Origin: Kiritimatiellales bacterium
GTDB taxonomy: Bacteria > Verrucomicrobiota > Kiritimatiellia > Kiritimatiellales > Tichowtungiaceae
DNA: 41,383 bases
Direction: 5' to 3'
Assembly: GCA_038213895.1 (NCBI GenBank)
Contig: JBBQSL010000005.1
Location: forward strand, 1 to 41,383
Numbering within the stretch: the first letter of the stretch is position 1; each line of letters opens with the position of its first letter. The notes under the pieces are model-generated. The model was not told the DNA's origin. It searched no databases and saw only the letters and a program-made list of their open reading frames with translations. Below, in pieces: positions 4,391 to 40,685 of the stretch. The position numbers were made by a program, and so were the translations under genes.

Positions 4391-4413
4391 GCGGCGGAAA
4401 CGGAATCAATTTA

Positions 4414-4454
4414 AGGCAGGCAGGATGCCTGCGATACGTACCGCGGGCTTCCAG
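4414..4454. repeat. dispersed copy related to the 33-bp tandem repeat (shared core CCTGCGATACGTACCGC)
   Basis: AAGGCAGGCAGGATGCCTGCGATACGTACCGCGGGCTTCCAG lies 24 nt after the AKR stop. The 17-nt core is identical to the one at 40650-40666. It is a hairpin-forming inverted repeat. Confidence 0.6.
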
Positions 4455-8451: not shown

Positions 8452-8577
8452 AATAATCCTCTCCGTTAAGATTTGTAAAAGGTCGCATTCTTATCTTTTT
8501 GACAACCCGGCGGCAAACATGATTTCTTTTGAACTTTGCCTGATAACAAAGAACTGTCAACTAACCTCGAGGTTTCA

Positions 8578-8892
8578 ATGAGCGAATTTAAAAACGTAAC
8601 CGTAGTGAAAAAAGCCAATGTCTATTTTGACGGCAAGGTCACCAGCCGCACTGTACTGTTTGCCGACGGCACAAAGAAAACCCTCGGCATCATGATGCCC
8701 GGCGATTACGAATTCGGCACCGACGCCGCAGAGATCATGGAAATGCTCGGCGGACAAATGGACGTTCTCCTGCCCGGTTCCAACGATTGGAAAACCTTCC
8801 AAGCGGGCGAATCCTATCAGGTTCCAGCCAACAGCAAATTTAAACTCAAAGTCCCCGTCGTCGCCGACTACTGCTGCTCGTATCTCAAGTAA
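8578..8892 (+). CDS. ppnP: pyrimidine/purine nucleoside phosphorylase PpnP (DUF1255)
   Basis: '[23 protein letters not shown]...GDYEFGT...VLLPGS' matches the PpnP/YaiE family. Start taken at the ATG at 8578. Confidence 0.75.
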
Positions 8893-8906
8893 GACGCCTG
8901 AGTTTA

Positions 8907-8955
8907 GGTAGGGACGGCTCGCCGAACCGTCCGCGACGCGTTCGGCGAACGCGCC
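8907..8955 (+). repeat. copy 1 (5' part only) of dispersed GC-rich palindromic repeat R
   Basis: GGTAGGGACGGCTCGCCGAACCGTCCGC lies 15 nt after the ppnP stop. It matches the 5' ends of the copies at 25827 and 35265 (reverse complement). Confidence 0.7.
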
Positions 8956-9073
8956 CCACCAAAGCATCTTGTCTGCGCAACAAACTTATTTTTTCTTTTT
9001 CTCTTTGTGGATCACCGGACCACCAGCCAAAACCACCACTTTCCATGTCTTCATATTGCATCTTCCTTTCAAT

Positions 9074-15823: not shown

Positions 15824-17644
15824 TTATCGTTTTCTCCGACTATGAGGACGGAGCTGTTTCATCTGCGTTCTGCGCTCGGCCAAACCTCGCACCACCGGCA
15901 CCGGTTCGCCGGTTTCATAATCAAGGCCGGTGTAATAAACAGCGGCAGCGGGCGTCATCGGTAGCGGTATAAAATCCTGCACTTGCTGGAGTTTCCATTC
16001 CTCCTCGCGCACAAATTTTTCAACCGCCTTCATTTCCTTTTCCGTCGATCCAGGAAAGTTGGAGATAAAGTACGGAACGATATACTGCTTCTTGCCCGCC
16101 GCACGGTTTTCCTCCTCGAACGCCTTCTGAAATTCGCAAAATGTCTCCGGTCCAGGTTTGCGCATTTTTTTCAGCACGTTCGGGTGCATATGCTCCGGTG
16201 CCACCTTCAAATGACCGGAAACATAGTGCTTCGCCAGCTCGCGGATATATTTCGGATTGCGCAGTGCCACGTCCATCCGAATGCCCGACTGGATAAAAAC
16301 ATGTTTCACCTTGGCCAGCTCGCGGACACGTTTCATCAGATGAATCGCTGACTCCGCATCCAGCTCAAGATTCGGGCAAATTGCCGGATATAAACAACTG
16401 GCGCGGCGGCAGACTTTACACGCCACGCAAACTCCGTTGGCACAACCGTATAAATTGGCCGTCGGCCCACCGAGATCGGTAATCGTTCCGGAAAAGGTTG
16501 GCGAGGCCGCCATCGTCTTCACCTCACGCACCACGGAATCCTCCGACCGGCTGGTCAAAAACCGTCCCTGATGCAAACCAAGTCCGCAAAAGGTGCAACC
16601 ACCACCACAGCCACGCACCACCGTCACCGATTCATTAATCATCGTAAACGCTGGAATCGGCTCTTTATAGGAAGGATGCGGAAGCCGCGTGTACGGCAGT
16701 TCATAAACACGATCCATTTCCACGCTGGTCAGCGGTTTTGCCGGCGGTGAAATCCATACGGCACGATCGCCGTGAAATTGAACTAACACCTTGCCGGAAA
16801 AAGGATTCTGCTCGCGCTCCGTCAACCGTGTCAGTTCCAGCACCGCTTTTTTGTCTACCAGACACTCCTCAAAGGACGGTAGTTTGATGCAGTTCGAAAA
16901 ATCATGCTCAGCCGACTCTTTTCCACCGAGCAGCCGCGCCGTTCCGGGGATGCCACTCAAATCAGCAACACCCACCCCGTCCGTCGCTCCGCTCCGGCCA
17001 CCCCTCCCCTGGAGGGGATTATTTAAACTCCCCTCCTTCGGAGGGGTGCCCGCAGGGTGGGGTGGGTTCCCAAGTCTCTTCGCGACTTCACGGATAGCGC
17101 GTTCGCCCATACCGTACACCAGCAGATCGGCCTTCGAATCCATCAGGATCGACGGACGCAGCTTATCCTGCCAGTAGTCATAGTGCGCCGTGCGCCGCAG
17201 GCTCGCTTCAATGCCGCCGAGCACCGTCACAACGCCCGGAAATGCTTTTTTGGCCAGTTGCGTATAAACCATACCAGCCAGATTGGGGCGTTTGCCGACT
17301 TCCCCGCCCGGTGTGTAGGAATCCTCTTTACGCTTGCGCCGCGCAGCGGTGTAATGCGAAAGCATCGAATCGAGATTGCCCGCCGTAATCCCGCAAAACA
17401 GGCGTGGACGACCCATCACGGTCAGCGACTCCGGCTTTGTCCAGTCGGGCTGGGCAATAATGCCTACACGCCAGCCGTCCGCCTCCAGTACGCGGCCGAT
17501 CACCGCCGCACCAAATGCCGGATGGTCAATATAGGCGTCGCCGCTGATAATCAGCACGTCTAGTTCGTCCCAGCCGCGCTGCTCCATTTCACGGCGTGAC
17601 ATGGGTAAAAACTGGTTTTTTCCAGCCATTGGAAAATCAGACAT
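15824..17644 (-). CDS. ygiQ: YgiQ-family radical SAM protein (UPF0313)
   Basis: 'FLPMSRREMEQRGWDELDVLIISGDAYIDHP' N-terminus and a CxxxCxxC-type cluster ('GCGGGCTFCG'). Carries a low-complexity insertion of about 34 aa encoded by a GC-rich palindromic DNA segment. Confidence 0.8.
   Translation of the reverse strand: MSDFPMAGKNQFLPMSRREMEQRGWDELDVLIISGDAYIDHPAFGAAVIGRVLEADGWRVGIIAQPDWTKPESLTVMGRPRLFCGITAGNLDSMLSHYTAARRKRKEDSYTPGGEVGKRPNLAGMVYTQLAKKAFPGVVTVLGGIEASLRRTAHYDYWQDKLRPSILMDSKADLLVYGMGERAIREVAKRLGNPPHPAGTPPKEGSLNNPLQGRGGRSGATDGVGVADLSGIPGTARLLGGKESAEHDFSNCIKLPSFEECLVDKKAVLELTRLTEREQNPFSGKVLVQFHGDRAVWISPPAKPLTSVEMDRVYELPYTRLPHPSYKEPIPAFTMINESVTVVRGCGGGCTFCGLGLHQGRFLTSRSEDSVVREVKTMAASPTFSGTITDLGGPTANLYGCANGVCVACKVCRRASCLYPAICPNLELDAESAIHLMKRVRELAKVKHVFIQSGIRMDVALRNPKYIRELAKHYVSGHLKVAPEHMHPNVLKKMRKPGPETFCEFQKAFEEENRAAGKKQYIVPYFISNFPGSTEKEMKAVEKFVREEEWKLQQVQDFIPLPMTPAAAVYYTGLDYETGEPVPVVRGLAERRTQMKQLRPHSRRKR
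16971..17072. repeat. in-frame GC-rich nested palindromic insertion inside ygiQ
   Basis: Outer arms CCCACCCC...GGGGTGGG. Two inner hairpins, CCCCTCC-CCT-GGAGGGG and CCCCTCC-TTC-GGAGGGG, around an AT-rich centre. Translates to PPHPAGTPPKEGSLNNPLQGRGGRSGATDGVGV. Confidence 0.6.
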
Positions 17645-19217
17645 GGGTCTTCCGTTTCTTTTTTCCCTGAGTCAAAAGCGTTTCAGTAGTTTGGACGTAG
17701 AGATTGAACAAAAACTCCACGCGGGTGGTTTCGGTGGTGAACGGTTGCGGACGGTAGCAGAGATCCACCGCACGATCCAACTCCTGATGGGCTTTCAGCA
17801 GGTCAACCGGCCTATAACGGGTCGCCTTGATGTACCAAGCCGTCACATAATCCAGCACTCCCGAGCCTTTAACCTTGGCAAAAATATCCGCCATCTCTTC
17901 ACGTTGCGTTTTAGACTGATACTTACTGCCGACAAATGGCGGATTGCCGAAAATGAAGTCGGATTTCTCCCCTCGGCGGGTTTTGAGTTCTTCAACCTCC
18001 TCTTCGGTCAAGATGTTGACTTTTTTGGCGGCGACATTGATTGCGCTGTAGTGTACCGGCGGCTCTTCGACTTTCATAACATTCTGCGTGTCCGCGCTGA
18101 GGTCGATATAGCTACCGGAAATCAGATGATCCCAATCAAGCCGCAATGCGTTGCCGTATGTGATATGCGCCGATTTTTTCAGCGGCAGGCGAACGAAATA
18201 CTGCCCGAATTCTTCGGAAACGAGCATGTTCATCTGGTGATCCATCAGCCACAGGGCAACTTCGGCAATCCGCGCGAGCCACTCTTCGTATTCAATGCCG
18301 TAGAACTGATCGACATCAATCCATAGTATGTCGGAGACATCGAGTACCGCCGGCCCGCCTTTGTGAAGTTCACGGAGAATTTCCAGCTCCAGCAGACGCA
18401 GCTCGCGGTAGGTGATGATCAAAAAATTTCCGCAGCCGCAGGCTGGGTCGAGAAATTTGAGTTTGGAAAGCTTTTCGTGGAATTCGACCAGCTTCTTGCT
18501 GCTTCCCTTACACTTCTTAAATTCAGCGTACAAATCATCCAAAAACAGCGGCCCGATGAGTTTGAGGATATTTTTTTCAGAGGTGTAGTGCGCACCCAAA
18601 TTACGCCGCGCCGTCGGGCTCATCACGGCCTGAAACATTGAGCCGAAGATTGCCGGAGAGATTTTTCCCCAATCGAGCGCACAGCATTCCAACAAAATTT
18701 CCCGCATCGCGGAGGTGAACGCGGCAATCCGTAGCGGCTCTTCGAACAGTCTGCCGTTGACGACGTAAGGAAATTGATTCAGCAATTCCTCGGTCGCGGA
18801 CTGTCGCGTTTCGCGCGGTGTGTCCAAGGTTTGGAAAAAGTCTGCCAGCACCGCGCCCAGATTATAGAGCCGGAAACGCTCGAAGTCGGAAACCAGCACA
18901 TATTTCGGTAACTCGTGCTCCTTGAGACCGCTGAAATAATCCAGCGCCTGCGAATAGGCCTTATCCAGATTTTTGCCGCGCGATTTATGCTCAACCAGCA
19001 GAGTCCCCTTCCAGAACAGGTCGATAAATCCGGTCTGCGCGTTCAGCTTTTTGACCGGCTTCTCGAAAGAGGCCACGCGGCGGCGGGAAATGCCGAAAAT
19101 GTGGAAAAACTCATCCCAAAAGGTCTTGGCCTCGGCGTGTTCACGGGTTTCGGCTTTCCAATCATTGGAAAACTTCATTGCCCGAGTTTTCATCTCATTC
19201 CACGATAAGGTTGCCAT
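17637..19217 (-). CDS. MmeI-family (type IIL RM / PglX-like) N6-adenine DNA methyltransferase, truncated form lacking the target-recognition domain; probable remnant
   Basis: MmeI-type N-terminus 'MATLSWNEMKTRAMKFSNDWK'. SAM motif I 'FLDPACGCGNFL'. Motif IV 'NPPF'. The family's C-terminal helix 'ELDRAVDLCY...RVEFLFNLY' follows directly. Only 526 aa, whereas intact members are about 900-1200. Overlaps ygiQ by 8 nt (ATGTCTGA). Confidence 0.6.
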   Translation of the reverse strand: MATLSWNEMKTRAMKFSNDWKAETREHAEAKTFWDEFFHIFGISRRRVASFEKPVKKLNAQTGFIDLFWKGTLLVEHKSRGKNLDKAYSQALDYFSGLKEHELPKYVLVSDFERFRLYNLGAVLADFFQTLDTPRETRQSATEELLNQFPYVVNGRLFEEPLRIAAFTSAMREILLECCALDWGKISPAIFGSMFQAVMSPTARRNLGAHYTSEKNILKLIGPLFLDDLYAEFKKCKGSSKKLVEFHEKLSKLKFLDPACGCGNFLIITYRELRLLELEILRELHKGGPAVLDVSDILWIDVDQFYGIEYEEWLARIAEVALWLMDHQMNMLVSEEFGQYFVRLPLKKSAHITYGNALRLDWDHLISGSYIDLSADTQNVMKVEEPPVHYSAINVAAKKVNILTEEEVEELKTRRGEKSDFIFGNPPFVGSKYQSKTQREEMADIFAKVKGSGVLDYVTAWYIKATRYRPVDLLKAHQELDRAVDLCYRPQPFTTETTRVEFLFNLYVQTTETLLTQGKKKRKTHV

Positions 19218-19358
19218 AGATGGAGAATCAGTTTCTTTAAGTTCAAAGTCAAGATTCCGGGTCACGAGGAATTCTAGGGTTTCCAATCCTTGGAAAATTT
19301 ATTCGACCTGATCGAAACGGCAACTTACTATGCAGGCCTGATTTAACTCAAAAAAAAC

Positions 19359-22300
19359 ATGCAACCATTAGACACCAATCTTTTTCTCGGCCTCTACCGA
19401 CACATGCTCGCATCGCGTAAAGCCGATGTCGTTCAGGAAGACGCCGCCCATCGCGGTGAGGCGTTTTTCTATGTCCCCTCCTCCGGCCACGAGTCGATGG
19501 CGGCACTGGCTCCTCATTTAACGCCGACGGACTGGCTGCACTGCCACTACCGCGACCGCGCGTTGATCCTCGCCCGCGGCGTCACACAAAAAGATCTGCT
19601 ACTCGAACTGCTCGGCAAAACCGGTTCACCCTCCGAGGGTCGCAACATGCCGGGATTTCCCTGTAACCGCCAGCTGAACCTGATCGGCGCCCCAACTGGC
19701 GTCGGCAGCAATACGGTGCAGGCCGTCGGTATCGCGCAGGCGATTAAGAACAGCAGCGACATCGTTTATTGCGGTATCGGCGATGGAGGCACACAAGAAG
19801 GCGAATTTTTTGAAGCCGTAGCCGAAGCCGTCCGCTCGCAGCTTCCCGTACTGTTTGTCGTCCAGAATAATCGTTACGCCCTTTCCACGCTGTCCAAAGG
19901 TCGCACCTTCTTTTCCCTGCCTGACGGCGATGCCAAAGAGTTCTACGGACTGCCGATTCTACGCGTTGATGGTACCGACGCCGTCGCAACACACCGCGTT
20001 TTCGGTGAAGCAGTTTCCAAGATTCGGAAAACCCGCGGCCCGCAGATCGTCGTAATGAATATTGAGCGACTAACCAGCCACACCAACGCCGACGACCATA
20101 CGCTCTACCGCTCCGCCGACGACATTCGGGAAATGCACGAGAAGTCCGATCCAATTTTAAACATCGCTGAGAAGCTGATCGCCGCCGGTATTCCCGAAGC
20201 ACAGCTCAAAGCCATTGAACACGAGGTTAACCAAGAACTTATCGCCGCTTTTGACGCCGCCCGCCGCGCAAAAAATGCCAAAACGGAACTTAGCGCGAAG
20301 AAACCGCTGCCCGCAAAACTGACGGCGGCAGAAAGTGAAAAACGCACGGACGGCGACGCGCTGACCATGCTCGAAGCGATGCGCGCCGTACTCCGCGACC
20401 GGCTCGGTACCGATAAAGATGTCTATCTCTACGGCGAAGATATTGAAGACCCTAAAGGCGATGTCTTCGGCTTAACGCGCGGCCTAAGCACCGCATTCCC
20501 CGGACGGGTTATCAATGCCCCGCTCAGCGAAGCTACCATCGTAGGCGCAGCGATCGGTCAGGCTCTTGTCGGGAAAAAGCCGGTTGCCTGTATCCAATTC
20601 GCCGACTTTATGCTTCCCGCTTTCAATCAAATCGCCGCCGAACTCGGCGCGATATGGTGGCGCACCAATGGACAATGGGAATGCCCCGTTATTTTGATGG
20701 TAATCTGCGGGGCTTATCGTCCCGGACTCGGCCCGTACCACGCACAAACGTTCGACGCAACCTTTGCGCATATTCCCGGTCTCGATGTTTTTATGCCTTC
20801 GACCGCCGCCGATGCCGCCGGTCTGCTCAACGCCTCCTTTGAGTCTGGACGTCCGACCGTATTCCTTTTCCCGAAAAATCTGATCAACGACCGCTCCGTC
20901 ACCGCCTCTGCCGACGCGGCGCAACAATTCGTACCCATCGGCAAAGCGCGCGTCACCCGTCCGGGCCGCGATCTCACTATCGTCAGCTGGGGCAGTACCG
21001 TACCGCTCTGCGAAAAAACAGCCGATGCACTGCAAACTGCTGGCGCGTCTGTCGAAGTAATTGATCTACGCTCGCTCGTTCCGTGGGATCAGGAAGCCGT
21101 TATCGCCTCCGCACAAAAAACAGGAAAATTGCTCGTCGTCCACGAAGACAACCATACCTGCGGATTCGGCGGCGAAGTGCTGGCCACGGTTGCCGAAAAA
21201 GCCAATGTTCCGGTGCAGATGGCGCGCGTCGCTCGGCACGACACCTACATTCCCTATCTCTTTGAAACGCAACTTGAGGTGTTGCCGTCATTCCGCACCG
21301 TACTCGGCAAAGCCGCCGAACTGCTCGACTACTCGCTGACGTGGCGAAAACCGATCGAAGAGGCCGAAGGCTTTGTAACCGTCAACGCCATCGGCTCCAG
21401 CCCGTCGGACAAAACAGTAAAAGTGACCGAACTGCACGTCAAAGTTGGACAAACCGTTAAAGCGGGCGAATTACTCGCTTCCGTCGAGGCCGACAAAGCC
21501 ACGATGGAAATTTCCGCGCCCGCGAGCGGAACCGTCGAAGAGCTCTTCTTGGCTGAAGGCGAGTCAGTAGATGTCGGCACCCCGCTGGCCCGCATCGCTA
21601 CCGAAGAAATCAGTCTCATTAAAAAACCGATTACCAAAGACGATCCCGGCACTCCGGTGCTGGAAAAACGAACGACCCTTGCTCCGCAGAGCGGTAAAAC
21701 CGTTACCGACGAGAGAAAACCGGTATTGATCTCTTCGATTGCCACCGTGCTCGGCTCGCGCCACATCACCAACGAAGAGCTGCTGCAAGGCCATGGAGAA
21801 TGGGATTCTGAGGCGATCCGCTCGCGTACCGGCTGCGAAAACCGTTACTGGATCACCGGCGACGAAAATGTCGAAACGCTGGCGGTCAAAGTCGTGCGCG
21901 ACCTGCTCGAAATGGAAAAACTGACGATTGCCGATATCGACGCACTCGTCTGTTCAACTGGCACCCCGCTAGCCATGACGCCATCGCTCGCCTGTCGCGT
22001 CCTCAAAGAACTCAGCCCCACCAAAGGCGAAGTCCAAATGCAGGCTCACGACATTAGTGCCGCCTGTTCGGGCTACATGTACGCCCTGCAAAACGCCTGT
22101 GACATCTTACGCGACGATCCGACAAAGAAAGTCATCATCATCACCGCCGAAACGCTTTCACCGATGATTAATCACGAAGATCAAAAAACACTGGCGCTCT
22201 TTGGCGATGCGGCGACCGCCTCGTTACTTTCCTGTGAACCGCGCGGCGGCAACGTCAATATTCTGGTGAACCGACCGGTTCTTTCCGCTACCGGCGTGGA

Positions 22301-22682
22301 TGAAAAAGTTCTCTACGTTCCTCACATGGGCAGCGGCAAGGTCATCGAAATGGAAGGACTCACCGTTTTCAAGCTCGCCGTACGCAAGATGATCGACATG
22401 CTCGCCGAAGCCTGCGAAAGCCGAGGCATCGCTGTGGATGCGCTTGATATGATCGTACCGCACCAGGCCAATGAACGAATTATCGAAGCCATTCGTAAAA
22501 CCATCCACTGCCCGCCGGAAAAAATGTTTAACCACATCCGTAAATACGCCAACACCTCGTCGAATACCATACCGTTCGCGCTGGTCGAGCTGATGCCCCA
22601 AATGAAAAAGGACGCACTGGTCGGTCTCACTGCATTTGGTGGCGGCTTCACCTTCGGCGCGGCCGTCATTGAAAAGCAATAA
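19359..22682 (+). CDS. four-domain fusion: 2-oxoacid dehydrogenase E1 alpha (TPP) + E1 beta + lipoyl domain + 3-oxoacyl-ACP synthase III (FabH-like)
   Basis: One uninterrupted 1107-aa ORF. Domains are listed by approximate residue ranges in the 1107-aa ORF. Residues 1-310: E1 alpha ('YRHMLASRKAD', TPP motif 'GIGDGGTQEG', 'VVQNNRYALST'). Residues 330-655: E1 beta ('LYGEDIEDPKGDVFGLTRGL', 'IQFADFM', 'VEVIDLRSLVPWD'). Residues 665-745: lipoyl domain ('VEADKATMEISAPASGTV'). Residues 770-1107: KAS III with a Cys-His-Asn triad ('AACSGYMYAL', 'VPHQANERII', 'ANTSSNTIPFAL', 'GGGFTFGAAV'). Confidence 0.85.
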   Translation: MQPLDTNLFLGLYRHMLASRKADVVQEDAAHRGEAFFYVPSSGHESMAALAPHLTPTDWLHCHYRDRALILARGVTQKDLLLELLGKTGSPSEGRNMPGFPCNRQLNLIGAPTGVGSNTVQAVGIAQAIKNSSDIVYCGIGDGGTQEGEFFEAVAEAVRSQLPVLFVVQNNRYALSTLSKGRTFFSLPDGDAKEFYGLPILRVDGTDAVATHRVFGEAVSKIRKTRGPQIVVMNIERLTSHTNADDHTLYRSADDIREMHEKSDPILNIAEKLIAAGIPEAQLKAIEHEVNQELIAAFDAARRAKNAKTELSAKKPLPAKLTAAESEKRTDGDALTMLEAMRAVLRDRLGTDKDVYLYGEDIEDPKGDVFGLTRGLSTAFPGRVINAPLSEATIVGAAIGQALVGKKPVACIQFADFMLPAFNQIAAELGAIWWRTNGQWECPVILMVICGAYRPGLGPYHAQTFDATFAHIPGLDVFMPSTAADAAGLLNASFESGRPTVFLFPKNLINDRSVTASADAAQQFVPIGKARVTRPGRDLTIVSWGSTVPLCEKTADALQTAGASVEVIDLRSLVPWDQEAVIASAQKTGKLLVVHEDNHTCGFGGEVLATVAEKANVPVQMARVARHDTYIPYLFETQLEVLPSFRTVLGKAAELLDYSLTWRKPIEEAEGFVTVNAIGSSPSDKTVKVTELHVKVGQTVKAGELLASVEADKATMEISAPASGTVEELFLAEGESVDVGTPLARIATEEISLIKKPITKDDPGTPVLEKRTTLAPQSGKTVTDERKPVLISSIATVLGSRHITNEELLQGHGEWDSEAIRSRTGCENRYWITGDENVETLAVKVVRDLLEMEKLTIADIDALVCSTGTPLAMTPSLACRVLKELSPTKGEVQMQAHDISAACSGYMYALQNACDILRDDPTKKVIIITAETLSPMINHEDQKTLALFGDAATASLLSCEPRGGNVNILVNRPVLSATGVDEKVLYVPHMGSGKVIEMEGLTVFKLAVRKMIDMLAEACESRGIAVDALDMIVPHQANERIIEAIRKTIHCPPEKMFNHIRKYANTSSNTIPFALVELMPQMKKDALVGLTAFGGGFTFGAAVIEKQ

Positions 22683-25526: not shown

Positions 25527-25765
25527 TGACACCATCTGAACATCCATGGGATCCGCTGCACGGCATTACGCTGGAGATGATGCTGAATCATCTGATTGAG
25601 CGGCACGGCTGGGAGGAAATGGGCCAGCGGATTAAAATCCGCTGTTTCCAACTTGATCCGTCGATTAAATCTAGCCTGACCTTTCTGCGCAAAACGCCTT
25701 GGGCTCGGGATAAAGTTGAGAAGTGGTTTATCGCCGACCTGCGCCGCCAGCAGCGCGGCAGATAG
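25523..25765 (+). CDS. VF530-family putative DNA-binding protein (DUF2132)
   Basis: 'HPWDPLHGITLEMMLNHLIERHGWEEMGQRIKIRCF...KTPWARDKVEKWFI'. The ATG overlaps the previous stop (ATGA). Confidence 0.65.
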   Translation: MMTPSEHPWDPLHGITLEMMLNHLIERHGWEEMGQRIKIRCFQLDPSIKSSLTFLRKTPWARDKVEKWFIADLRRQQRGR

Positions 25766-28471: not shown

Positions 28472-29407
28472 TTATGCGCCTTCGGTACGGAGACGCGGAT
28501 CAAGCGCGTCGCGCAACGCATCGCCGAGCAAATTGAAGGCTAAAACTAATCCAAAAATGGCCAGCGTAACGAAGGTCATTTCCCACCAAACGCCCTGCCA
28601 GAGCCGCATGCGGGCACTATTGATCATAATACCCCACGACGGTTCGTTCTGGACACCGATACCAAGAAAACTCATGAAGACTTCCGTGCTCACGGCCGCC
28701 GGGAAACGTAGCGTAAAAGTTACGATTACGACGTGGAAGACGTTGGGAAGAATGTGACGGAAGAGAATCCGCGGCCAACTCAGCCCTAGCGCTTTCGCCG
28801 CCTGCACATAGGCCTGCTCCTTATGTTTGATCACTTCACCGCGAATCAGACGGCACAGTCCGACCCACGTGGTAAGTCCGATGCCGAGATAAATTCCCAT
28901 CAGCCCCTTTCCGACCACCATAGCAATGGCAAGAATGAAAAGCAGCCCCGGCATCGAAGCGACAGTAGAATAAAGCCAGACGACAAAGCTATCCACCCTG
29001 CCACCAAAATAGCCCGCCAGACAGCCGAAGAAAACGCCGATCGGAATAGCAATCAGCGCGGTGATGATACCAACCTTATAGGCAATGCGCGTCCCCTGAA
29101 TCAGACGCTGCATCACGTCACGACCCAACGCGTCAGTGCCCATCCAATGTTTGGAATATGGAGATTGATAGGCCTGATTCAGATCGGTCTTCTGATAAAA
29201 AGCAGTCTGATCTTTCGCCTTATAAACCTGATAAACCGCTTCGCCATAAACGGCCAGCGCGGTGTAAAAAACGACCACCCCGAGACAAACCATCGCGAGG
29301 CGGTTCTTTTTCAATCGCCGCCAAGCGTCGGACCAGAGCGAGATTCCTCGCTCCGGAGTTCTCGGCGGTCGGGGTTGGGGGTCAGTCCTTGAATTTTGAT
29401 ATTTCAT
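28472..29407 (-). CDS. peptide ABC transporter permease, OppC/DppC-like
   Basis: N-terminal 'SLWSDAWRRLKKNRLAMVCLGVVV' and the transporter motif region. Its ATG (29407-29405) and the first codons lie inside the left end of the adjacent transposon. Confidence 0.8.
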   Translation of the reverse strand: MKYQNSRTDPQPRPPRTPERGISLWSDAWRRLKKNRLAMVCLGVVVFYTALAVYGEAVYQVYKAKDQTAFYQKTDLNQAYQSPYSKHWMGTDALGRDVMQRLIQGTRIAYKVGIITALIAIPIGVFFGCLAGYFGGRVDSFVVWLYSTVASMPGLLFILAIAMVVGKGLMGIYLGIGLTTWVGLCRLIRGEVIKHKEQAYVQAAKALGLSWPRILFRHILPNVFHVVIVTFTLRFPAAVSTEVFMSFLGIGVQNEPSWGIMINSARMRLWQGVWWEMTFVTLAIFGLVLAFNLLGDALRDALDPRLRTEGA

Positions 29408-30456
29408 TCTTCATCTCCAACAAAGCACCCTCTGTCACCACTTCAACCTCGCGAACCGCTCTTGAAATCGTCGCCGCGTGACCCATATTTAACGCCTCGG
29501 AAATCCATTCGTTCTTTACGCTCGTATTCCGGCGAATAAGCCATGCGATAACCTTTTTCCGGTCATCGCCTTTTTTCAGCTTTTGCAACATCTCACGGTT
29601 AACTTTCAGGACGTCCAGACCGTTCCCAAGAAGTTTTTCAGCAGCCTGTTTATCATGTCGCGCAACGGCTCCGCCGCTGTGCGAATCCCGGCGTTTTCCC
29701 ATTGCAGCATTCTCCAGAGCACCGCGCACTTGTGAACAAAACTCTGCGGATCCGAAAATCCATCCCCTTCGGATCTGATCCCACATCTCATCCGCTTTCG
29801 CTGGGTTGTCGCTATGCAGAATGGCCAGGACTCTCTTCTGCATGGCCTTGCGATAGGCCGCTCTTCCGAGTGCTGTATCCTCAAAACTGCAACTCTTCAG
29901 AACCCGGTCCACCGTCAGCCAGCCGGGCCGCTCCGAAGGATAAAGATATCCCCGAAAACTGCTCCATTTGAAATCAGAAAGTGTGCCCTTCTCTAGATCA
30001 AAACAGTTCGCCCGCACCGGATTCAAATGAATATAACTGGATACAGTAGAAAAATACTCTCCACCATCTACCAAAAGGGCTTTATATCGGCCTTGGAAAA
30101 GATGACCCCAGACCTTATGCCGGGCATTAAAGCGCTGAGTATACGTCCCCTGAAGCCACCGCATACCATCCACGAGATTCGGTTCCGGTGTTTCCAGCAG
30201 AAGATGATAGTGATTACCCATCAGGACAAAGACGTGGACTCTCCATCCACATCGATTGCACGCATCCCCGAGAGTTTTAAGAAACATCTCGTGATCCTGC
30301 TGGTCTTTAAAAACCGGATCCTGACGGTTACCGCGGCACATCACATGATATACTGCCCCGGGGAATTGAACTCTTAACGGTCTTGGCATGAGAATCATGT
30401 AAACAAACTACAAAGGTAGCGTCAATCGAAAATATCAAAATTCAAGGACTGACCCC
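29378..30456. mobile_element. insertion element carrying a Y1 (IS200-like) + DnaA-HTH transposase, bounded by 27-bp perfect terminal inverted repeats
   Basis: 29378-29404 is GGGGTCAGTCCTTGAATTTTGATATTT. 30430-30456 is its exact reverse complement. A single gene lies inside. The right flank has a tandem 11-bp duplication GACCCCACTAA (30451-30472). Confidence 0.7.
29382..30398 (-). CDS. transposase: N-terminal Y1 HuH (IS200-like) domain + C-terminal DnaA-type helix-turn-helix
   Basis: 'VYHVMCRGNRQ' and HuH 'MGNHYHLLLE'. The C-terminus 'KVIAWLIRRNTSVKNEWISEALNMGHAATISRAVREV' is a DnaA-C-like HTH. The stop codon sits in the left inverted repeat. Confidence 0.75.
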   Translation of the reverse strand: MILMPRPLRVQFPGAVYHVMCRGNRQDPVFKDQQDHEMFLKTLGDACNRCGWRVHVFVLMGNHYHLLLETPEPNLVDGMRWLQGTYTQRFNARHKVWGHLFQGRYKALLVDGGEYFSTVSSYIHLNPVRANCFDLEKGTLSDFKWSSFRGYLYPSERPGWLTVDRVLKSCSFEDTALGRAAYRKAMQKRVLAILHSDNPAKADEMWDQIRRGWIFGSAEFCSQVRGALENAAMGKRRDSHSGGAVARHDKQAAEKLLGNGLDVLKVNREMLQKLKKGDDRKKVIAWLIRRNTSVKNEWISEALNMGHAATISRAVREVEVVTEGALLEMKNEISKFKD

Positions 30457-40565: not shown

Positions 40566-40685
40566 GACAAGGCAGGCTGGAAGCCCGCGGTACGTATAGA
40601 CAAGGCAGGCTGGAAGCCCGCGTTACGTATCGACAAGGCAGGCTGGAAGCCTGCGATACGTACCGCAGGCTTTCAGCCTGCCTTG
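40566..40685. repeat. three tandem copies of a 33-bp repeat (GACAAGGCAGGCTGGAAGCCCGCGGTACGTATA); the last copy extends into a 22-bp-stem hairpin
   Basis: Units lie at 40566-40598, 40599-40631 and 40632 onward. The third unit runs into CAAGGCAGGCTGGAAGCCTGCG-ATACGTA-CCGCAGGCTTTCAGCCTGCCTTG. The region lies in the divergent intergenic space between the S8 peptidase and the next gene. Confidence 0.8.

Follow-up and report, generated by a model that had tools for sequence, protein, structure and literature searches.

A palindromic repeat inside ygiQ

We analyzed a 41,383-nucleotide (nt) stretch of DNA from a Kiritimatiellales bacterium (the whole of contig JBBQSL010000005.1; the window) in which a GC-rich nested palindrome lies inside a gene of the ygiQ radical SAM family. 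The product of this open reading frame (ORF) has the three-domain architecture of YgiQ (PF08497 Radical_SAM_N, 405.4 bits; PF04055 Radical_SAM, 38.6 bits; PF11842 DUF3362, 27.6 bits) and the CxxxCxxC motif (CGGGCTFC). Its closest named relatives are proteins from Kiritimatiellales metagenome-assembled genomes (MAGs), and the Radical_SAM_N match (residues 12-339) runs straight across the palindrome. The original prediction described the palindrome as a small mobile repeat that had landed in frame at 16971-17072 and encoded a tolerated Gly/Pro-rich loop of ~34 residues. The palindrome is real and is built as described, from outer arms and two CCCCTCC-NNN-GGAGGGG hairpins around an AT-rich centre, but its best boundaries are slightly tighter (16970-17068). 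Likewise, the quoted peptide was correct but spans 33 codons (N193-G225). The insert starts at offset 576 of the gene, is 99 nt long and has phase 0. Boundaries were set by a regular expression and by alignment of 31 and 23 copies, and a covariance model scored the window copy at 98.5 bits (E = 6.7e-20). The coordinates of these and other features are collected in Table 1.

The element (G+C ~69%) consists of two short imperfect palindromes in inverted orientation that are able to form one long hairpin. Its parts follow one another in the order outer stem, small hairpin, CACCCCTCC-N3-GGAGGGGA, spacer, TCCCCTCC-N3-GGAGGGGTG, small hairpin, outer stem. The CCCCTCC-N3-GGAGGGG pattern occurs twice here, compared to 0.01 expected from shuffled sequences, and nowhere else in the 41 kb. 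The CCCCTCC/GGAGGGG stems are unchanged in 23 copies from seven lineages (Kiritimatiellales, Verrucomicrobiota, Binatia, Bacteroidota, Thiotrichales, Sideroxydans and the ygiQ set), and the spacer between the two hairpins ranges from 6 to ~25 nt. The outer arms, ACCCACCCC and GGGGTGGGT, are 100% complementary in the window, and 98.5% of outer-stem cells are paired in the 23 copies. The longer small hairpin is the asymmetric part of the aligned copies and defines the orientation of the element; it has compensatory changes in helix 6/7 pairs. The short one has compensatory changes at columns 11/23 (6 sequences), 12/22 (3) and 13/18 (4). In the window copy, a G-to-A change breaks one closing pair of the short hairpin and gives His instead of Arg in PPHP.

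We found that a five-helix single-strand structure is conserved in this family, with compensatory changes. Over the 23 copies, 96.2% of cells were paired, compared to 51-61% in slid controls, and covariation was 0.130 for the structure compared to 0.006-0.025 for the controls. Eight pairs had changed on both sides, compared to 3.3 ± 1.3 in shuffles (1/500 reached 8). Each of the two small hairpins covaries on its own, and they lack complementarity to one another, indicating that what is conserved is local hairpins in a single strand. The predicted RNA fold of the region is very stable (-77.9 kcal/mol, z = -6.45; 0/200 shuffles as stable), and the DNA fold gave z = -4.71. No Rfam family reached its gathering score; the best match, mir-188 (25.7 bits, with 72 needed), is a generic hairpin resemblance.

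The peptide encoded by the insert is a by-product, with no constraint at the protein level. Among four same-orientation ygiQ copies, differences in the insert fell at codon positions 1/2/3 in numbers of 15/25/26; the counts in 840 nt of flanking ygiQ were 182/140/688. The insert DNA diverged by 8-15%, compared to ~33-49% per pair at third codon positions of the flanks, and its changes fell in loops and spacer while the stems were kept. Because the substitutions ignore codon position, it is DNA or RNA structure that is conserved, and not the peptide.

The insert is predicted to sit in a disordered, Pro/Gly-rich loop of 33 residues. An AlphaFold model made with an 85-sequence alignment (mean pLDDT 79.2, pTM 0.84), which superseded one made with 28 close sequences (mean pLDDT 51.6), shows residues 196-225 as coil with pLDDT <50. 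Helix 181-191 and strand 235-238 flank the coil and belong to blocks whose mean pLDDT is >90. A low-confidence coil between two confident elements fits the proposed tolerance of the extra loop. A structure search found no solved YgiQ structure. Pfam detected no intein family in the host protein, and a splicing domain is lacking from the insert. We set aside the idea that the insert is bypassed in translation or spliced out, because all ygiQ copies, in both orientations, are stop-free and in frame.

The ygiQ linker as a site of repeated insertion

We found that the palindromic segment is an insertion between conserved blocks of YgiQ, as the original prediction had it. Among the 120 best YgiQ matches, ~85 have a 9-amino acid (aa) linker (e.g., IDGQKPLDA) between the helix ...RAIREIARR and the strand IPGTARLLGG; the window protein has 41 aa there. 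We conclude from these orthologues that the segment was inserted. The ~85 include all more distant orthologues (Tichowtungia, Pontiella, Acidobacteria), and the window protein is 87-90% identical to orthologues without an insert. A homologous loop with non-palindromic DNA in unrelated lineages, which would speak against insertion, was not seen. The metagenome YgiQ matches listed were mostly distant orthologues (≤73% identity) and of little use for the insert.

In ygiQ, the element has been gained, lost, duplicated and flipped, with its junctions unchanged. The occupied linkers carry inserts of types A (the window type) to E (Table 1). In a tree made with the insert masked, these types are interleaved with empty-site sequences at very short distances, indicating that gains and losses have been frequent. 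In the ygiQ gene of a close relative (locus L001), an additional half of the element lies in tandem. Types A and E are reverse complements of each other: the genes at L205 and L203 carry the same 98-nt element as those at L206, L204 and the window, in the opposite orientation. The junctions are lineage-specific and are identical in L206 and L205 (AAG^AACCC...GGGT^AATTT(C/T)GAC) and in L204 and L203 (...GGGT^CAT(C/T)CCGGG; both from JGI sample 3300077567). The simplest reading is that the element was flipped in place, or had its interior exchanged, at least twice.

Other repeats have entered the same region. Types B, C and D are bounded by GTAG...CTAC, as read from the sequences, like classical repetitive extragenic palindromic (REP) sequences. 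Part of type B recurs at L208 359-394 and at L209 16947-16983, and type C is found again at L033 2832-2877. Between types, the point of insertion shifts by a few codons, so the hotspot is a tolerant linker region and not a single nucleotide. In five proteins, another insert lies ~20 residues downstream of the main linker site; it matches window positions 40634-40682 and 4413-4454.

We also noted several features of the repeats in and around this gene. The insert at the downstream ygiQ site (in P0024, P0028, P0043, P0053 and P0061) belongs to a second repeat family, with an array and a single copy in the window (Table 1). In P0028 (L207 5241-5549), LGNP (GGGAATCCAC) stands before the type D, REP-like insert. 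It resembles a left-end remnant of the twin-hairpin element and suggests that one repeat replaced, or landed in, another. Elsewhere in the window, an imperfect palindrome with a GTAG tag (TTAGGTAGGGACGGCTCGCCGAAC / GTTCGGCGAACGCGCCCCACC) follows the ORF at 8536-8892 and has the look of a classical REP or a terminator.

Upstream of ygiQ is a shortened gene of the MmeI restriction-modification family, which overlaps the ygiQ start by 8 nt and is not found at the corresponding position in L001, L002 or L208. It lies between ygiQ and a single ORF that fuses 2-oxoacid dehydrogenase E1, lipoyl and KAS III modules. This fusion gene adjoins ygiQ in all relatives.

Dispersal of the family and its association with DUF559 genes

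We found copies of this 88-100-nt repeat family in many phyla, both between genes and inside genes other than ygiQ. The covariance model detected one copy in the 41-kb window, three in L001 and none in L002 or L123. The L001 copies lie within 22 kb, and the two beyond ygiQ are intergenic. A scan of one genome per species with the pattern CCCCTCCNNNGGAGGGGN{6,20}CCCCTCC gave at least 120 loci. The matches listed came from Verrucomicrobiota, Kiritimatiellales, Cyanobacteria, Bacteroidota, Planctomycetota, Binatia, Proteobacteria, Nitrospinota and others. The full architecture is nearly unchanged in Verrucomicrobiota, Kiritimatiellales, Cyanobacteria, Bacteroidota, Binatia, Gallionellaceae, Thiotrichales and Nitrospinota, and variants occur in Planctomycetota, Clostridia and Prevotella. 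Isolates carrying the element include Pedobacter cryotolerans and Pseudanabaena cinerea. Most copies are intergenic. Together with the in-frame copies described below, these bear out the earlier view of the palindrome as a small mobile repeat.

A Planctomycetaceae MAG (Cd354_bin63) accounts for at least 24 of the loci (within L003-L119). In this MAG, a 61-nt short version of the twin hairpin lies inside a larger repeat of ~190 nt. Many copies are at contig ends, indicating that the repeat breaks assembly.

Copies also occur in frame in genes unrelated to ygiQ: a hybrid histidine kinase (L100, with the copy in its HATPase_c domain), an RlmN-like radical SAM gene (L033 3186-3273) and an HsdS gene (L078). 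A search of 1.84 billion representative proteins with the 33-aa peptide gave two significant matches, P0121 (a MiaB-like methylthiotransferase) and P0122 (annotated 'pyruvate formate lyase activating enzyme'; PflA-like), both with in-frame copies. A profile of the concatenated type A and E peptides found no other host protein in the protein database, and a 43-aa peptide profile gave only three matches, weak and short. Of the six proteins with an in-frame copy, a small sample, four are radical SAM enzymes (YgiQ, RlmN-like, MiaB-like and PflA-like). One match in 2.9 million viral contigs gives no sign of phage carriage, and blastn of the window element against plasmids gave no match. Literature searches on strings of the element sequence returned nothing relevant; an occurrence in PMC3116915 is coincidental.

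We found that members of the family bracket genes for DUF559, a small endonuclease domain. When all ORFs within 2.5 kb of the pattern-selected elements were clustered, a DUF559 ORF was bracketed by family members at five loci in five phyla (L026, L078, L109, L070 and L111; Table 1). A Lewinellaceae gene for leucyl-tRNA synthetase (LeuRS; L061 2-2749) has an ORF-less element at the same site as the L111 insertion. The Sideroxydans and Pseudanabaena DUF559 proteins are 81% identical. This implies recent horizontal transfer, which would explain the uniformity of the element across phyla.

As an independent check, we inspected 11 plasmid DUF559 genes found by tblastn. Seven of the 11 have GC hairpins on both sides, C/T-rich then G/A-rich, with reverse-complementary loops. 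Across 49 kb of one Sphingomonas plasmid, six such hairpins occur in all, two of which bracket the sole DUF559 gene. On a Pseudanabaena plasmid (L212), a 1621-aa coding sequence (CDS) contains DUF559 between mirrored hairpin pairs.

DUF559 matches PDB 3hrl. PMC3424549 classes DUF559 with Vsr and the homing endonuclease I-Bth0305I, and PMC2677866 treats Vsr-like homing endonucleases as established. According to PMC9881135, DUF559 proteins are enriched among predicted programmed inversions, in keeping with genes that lie between inverted repeats. We found no description of the hairpin-bracketed arrangement in the portions available of the open-access literature that mentions DUF559, where the term is absent from titles and abstracts.

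Table 1. Features of the window and of related loci. Positions refer to the window unless a locus is named.
Feature	Location	Strand	Description
Host gene, ygiQ-family radical SAM	15824-17644	-	intact ORF, 606 aa
Nested-palindrome repeat, complete copy	16970-17068	-	98-nt core + 1 nt = 99 nt
Outer stem arm ACCCACCCC	16970-16978		terminal inverted repeat; pairs with 17059-17067
Longer small hairpin	16979-16999		gene sense GGCCGGAGCGGAGCGACGGAC; GAA-type loop, tandem G.A mismatches
Invariant hairpin CCCCTCC-CCT-GGAGGGG	17001-17017		from alignment of 23 copies
Variable spacer ATTATTTAAACT	17018-17029		AT-rich; between the two invariant hairpins
Invariant hairpin CCCCTCC-TTC-GGAGGGG	17030-17046		from alignment of 23 copies
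Short small hairpin	17048-17058		gene sense ACCC-TGCG-GGC; alignment columns 10-24
Outer stem arm GGGGTGGGT	17059-17067		terminal inverted repeat; pairs with 16970-16978
Insert type A (window type)	ygiQ linker		PPRPAGTPPxEGNLNDPLHRRGGRSEATDGVG; 8 proteins
Insert type B	ygiQ linker		7 proteins
Insert type C	ygiQ linker		8 proteins
Insert type D	ygiQ linker		2 proteins
Insert type E	ygiQ linker		PPRPSLRSGHPSxGGD...SPPxEGCPQGGVG; 4 proteins
DUF559 locus, Pseudanabaena	L109		complete element, DUF559 ORF, complete element
DUF559 locus, Nitrospinota	L078		DUF559 inside HsdS, half elements; Pfam 100.8 bits
DUF559 locus, Sideroxydans	L026		DUF559, half elements; abutting copy is a row of the 23-copy alignment
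DUF559 locus, Sphingobacteriales	L070		DUF559 ORF bracketed
DUF559 locus, Paceibacterota	L111 4229-6874		hairpin-DUF559-hairpin in frame in LeuRS, just before ..FTTRPET motif
Second repeat family, array	40568-40685		three tandem 33-nt units (GACAAGGCAGGCTGGAAGCCCGCGGTACGTATA) and one inverted; upstream of subtilase gene
Second repeat family, single copy	4413-4454		after aldo/keto reductase gene
Imperfect palindrome with GTAG tag	8904-8963		just after ORF 8536-8892
MmeI-family gene, shortened	17637-19286	-	549 aa; MmeI_N, partial MmeI_Mtase, partial MmeI_C
E1-lipoyl-KASIII fusion gene	19359-22682	+	1107 aa; 2-oxoacid dehydrogenase E1 (alpha, beta), lipoyl domain, KAS III (FabH-like) module
Y1_Tnp/IS200-like gene	29382-30398	-	338 aa; between two ABC permease genes; HUH motif HYH, Tyr motif YIHLNP
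VF530 part alone	~25532-25738		syntenic with L001 4346-4588
REP-associated tyrosine transposase fused to VF530 DNA-binding domain	L209 1912-2889	-	

Origin of the repeat and comparison with known systems

Based on these results we suggest, with good though not complete confidence, that the ygiQ segment is a non-autonomous, ORF-less, selfish palindromic repeat that sits in an interdomain linker and is read through. That it spreads with the aid of DUF559 is less certain. The repeat would have landed in the linker of ygiQ, where the ribosome would read 33 extra codons as a Pro/Gly-rich disordered loop. Its persistence there may be due to three properties: its 99 nt divide evenly into codons, neither orientation has a stop codon in the frame used, and the linker tolerates length. 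Judging from the homology of the elements, the family may spread with help from the small Vsr-like PD-(D/E)xK endonuclease DUF559, and the ygiQ insert is probably an ORF-less relative of the DUF559 cassettes. ORF-less copies could be mobilised or duplicated in trans through copying induced by a break or nick. Such copying would produce no target-site duplication, and the copies examined are consistent with this. The small copies might alternatively be the remains left when the nuclease ORF was deleted between two identical hairpins.

Several points weigh against this picture. Transposition, excision and homing are all deduced from sequence, not observed directly. There is no DUF559 gene and no second element copy in the 41-kb contig, or in the few Kiritimatiellales and Verrucomicrobiota loci examined. 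The link to the nuclease for the Kiritimatiellales subfamily therefore comes from element homology, and the engine is deduced. The bracketing architecture varies, with complete elements in L109, half elements in L078 and L026, and single hairpins on plasmids. Hairpins that are C/T-rich then G/A-rich do not occur on both sides in four of the 11 plasmid DUF559 genes: one has a different inverted hairpin pair, two have one-sided hairpins and one has none. The nuclease could, instead of mobilising the repeats, be encoded by a parasitic gene that uses them as homing sites. The orientation flips could be re-insertions at an identical point, or recombination between alleles. In addition, Y1/RAYT-like transposase genes occur in the lineage too, one of them 43 nt from a copy.

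This last point bears on the reading in which the element is a REPIN-type doublet, moved as single-stranded DNA by a REP-associated tyrosine transposase (RAYT; a Y1/HUH enzyme), with DUF559 as an unrelated passenger. We consider this unlikely. The doublet-of-hairpins shape fits it, and so does the absence of a target-site duplication in >20 copies with 25-nt flanks, which show no more than an A...T extension of the palindrome. The window has a gene for a Y1_Tnp protein (Pfam, 50.5 bits) whose best NCBIfam match is the REP-associated tyrosine transposase model (56.6 bits; cut-off 80), and the transposase of the relative at L209 exceeds that cut-off (94.9 bits). In one case, L080, a Y1 gene ends 43 nt from an element copy, and types B, C and D, at the same ygiQ linker, have the GTAG...CTAC bounds of classical REPs. 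However, the element itself has no GTAG or CTAC tag, or CGTC, at either end in 31 copies, and the window Y1 gene has no adjacent copy or hairpin. The window protein is only 25% identical to the L080 and L209 proteins, and the three are ~25% identical. Among the ~120 loci listed there is one Y1 adjacency, compared to five for DUF559, and a second Y1 gene, at L107, belongs to a classic IS200 with its own hairpins. Moreover, REP families are normally species-specific, whereas the window element is nearly identical across phyla. As a separate observation, the L209 transposase is fused to a VF530 DNA-binding domain, and the VF530 part alone remains at the syntenic position in L001 and the window (Table 1).

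It is very unlikely that the segment serves the host, as a regulatory mRNA or DNA structure in ygiQ or as an adaptive surface loop, instead of being selfish DNA. The very stable predicted fold, the covariation, and the stronger conservation of the insert DNA than of the third codon positions beside it are all compatible with such a role. In contrast, presence of the insert varies among near-identical orthologues, both orientations occur and encode unrelated peptides, and unrelated repeats can fill the same linker. The same element is found in intergenic DNA and in unrelated genes of other phyla. Its substitutions ignore codon position, and the insert is predicted to be disordered.

There is a faint chance that the element is a classical MITE (a miniature transposable element with inverted repeats), i.e., a deletion derivative of a DDE-transposase insertion sequence that moves by cut-and-paste via its terminal inverted repeats. 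It has perfect terminal inverted repeats of 9-10 bp, is ~100 nt long and is multi-copy and dispersed. However, the >20 copies have no target-site duplication. Among the loci examined, none had a longer element in which these ends enclose a transposase gene, and the internal hairpins are conserved and covary, neither of which is needed if only terminal repeats are recognized. A search for an autonomous longer element, with left and right ends 300-4000 nt apart, turned up only separate small copies.

Local slippage or duplication, or an assembly artefact, has nothing in its favor beyond the simple G/C-rich composition and is already refuted by the copies at unrelated loci and the opposite-orientation ygiQ copies, as well as by independent NCBI, ENA and JGI assemblies, which share the 98-nt element at this site, and by covariance model E values of 1e-18 to 1e-21.

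The cross-phylum family, the ygiQ linker hotspot with its flips and the tie of related elements to DUF559 go beyond the original prediction. In-frame palindromic mobile repeats as such are known already (Rickettsia palindromic elements (RPEs) and intragenic MITEs; PMC10969869). The family described here is new and spans phyla, with a defined five-helix structure and a remarkable hotspot in ygiQ; the partnership with DUF559 is likely and apparently undescribed. Tentatively, and giving it somewhat less than an even chance, we propose that the twin-hairpin repeats and the DUF559 genes form an undescribed class of horizontally spreading selfish elements, in which a Vsr-fold nuclease, set between inverted modules of C/T-rich then G/A-rich hairpins, is accompanied by abundant ORF-less miniatures. 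In such a class, both forms could live and flip in frame in essential or conserved genes (ygiQ, LeuRS, HsdS, histidine kinase, several radical SAM enzymes) because several frames of the hairpin ends would read as Pro/Gly linkers free of stops.

So far, in-frame palindromic repeats have mostly been regarded as peculiar to Rickettsia and a few pathogens, and the same behavior is now seen in free-living anaerobes (Kiritimatiellales). A single enzyme linker that has been hit, emptied, flipped and hit again by several repeat families is a natural experiment on how loops are tolerated and acquired. The association with DUF559 suggests a function, open to test, for a nuclease domain that is very common and uncharacterised and, if true, would give it a role. 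It may also point to a new way of moving within genes that requires no intron or intein. In practice, inserts of this kind swell protein families, give rise to spurious 'hypothetical proteins' and interrupt metagenomic assemblies.

The element has similarities to several known systems. Like the RPEs (Ogata et al. 2000, 2002, as summarised in PMC10969869), it is a palindromic repeat of ~100 nt that is found in frame in unrelated genes and read through, with the fold tolerating the loop. By their descriptions there, the RPEs are AT-rich (RPE-1 to RPE-10) and belong to Rickettsiales, whereas the window family is GC-rich and occurs in Kiritimatiellales and many other phyla. Unlike what is summarised for RPEs, most of its copies are intergenic and its peptide is not conserved as such, given both orientations and substitutions independent of codon position.

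Like REPs and REPINs with their RAYTs (PMC3116915), the family consists of non-autonomous inverted doublets of GC-rich hairpins without target-site duplication, linked to one small enzyme gene flanked by the repeats. In contrast to them, it lacks the GTAG tag, flanks a PD-(D/E)xK nuclease gene (DUF559) and not a Y1 transposase gene, is conserved across phyla, and has two extra covarying hairpins and an outer stem. Intragenic MITEs (QMITE1 of Coxiella, ERIC, BOX and Anabaena MITEs; PMC10969869 and PMC5896051) are likewise small, have terminal inverted repeats and add peptide inside ORFs. Unlike them, the window family has no target-site duplication and no parent insertion sequence among the loci examined.

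The DUF559 cassettes resemble Vsr-like (EDxHD) homing endonucleases (I-Bth0305I and 'fractured gene' types; PMC2677866 and PMC3424549) in being small selfish genes for a Vsr-fold nuclease inside conserved genes, with hairpins beside the ORF. The homing endonucleases lie in group I introns or between split-intein halves and have one cognate site, whereas DUF559 has inverted hairpin brackets, is read through in frame with its host (LeuRS in L111, HsdS in L078, the 1621-aa CDS in L212) and coexists with many ORF-less miniature copies. Finally, like inteins, the ygiQ repeat is a selfish in-frame insert in a conserved protein, often at the same site across lineages. Unlike inteins, it adds 33 Pro/Gly-rich residues with no splicing domain, which presumably stay in the mature protein.

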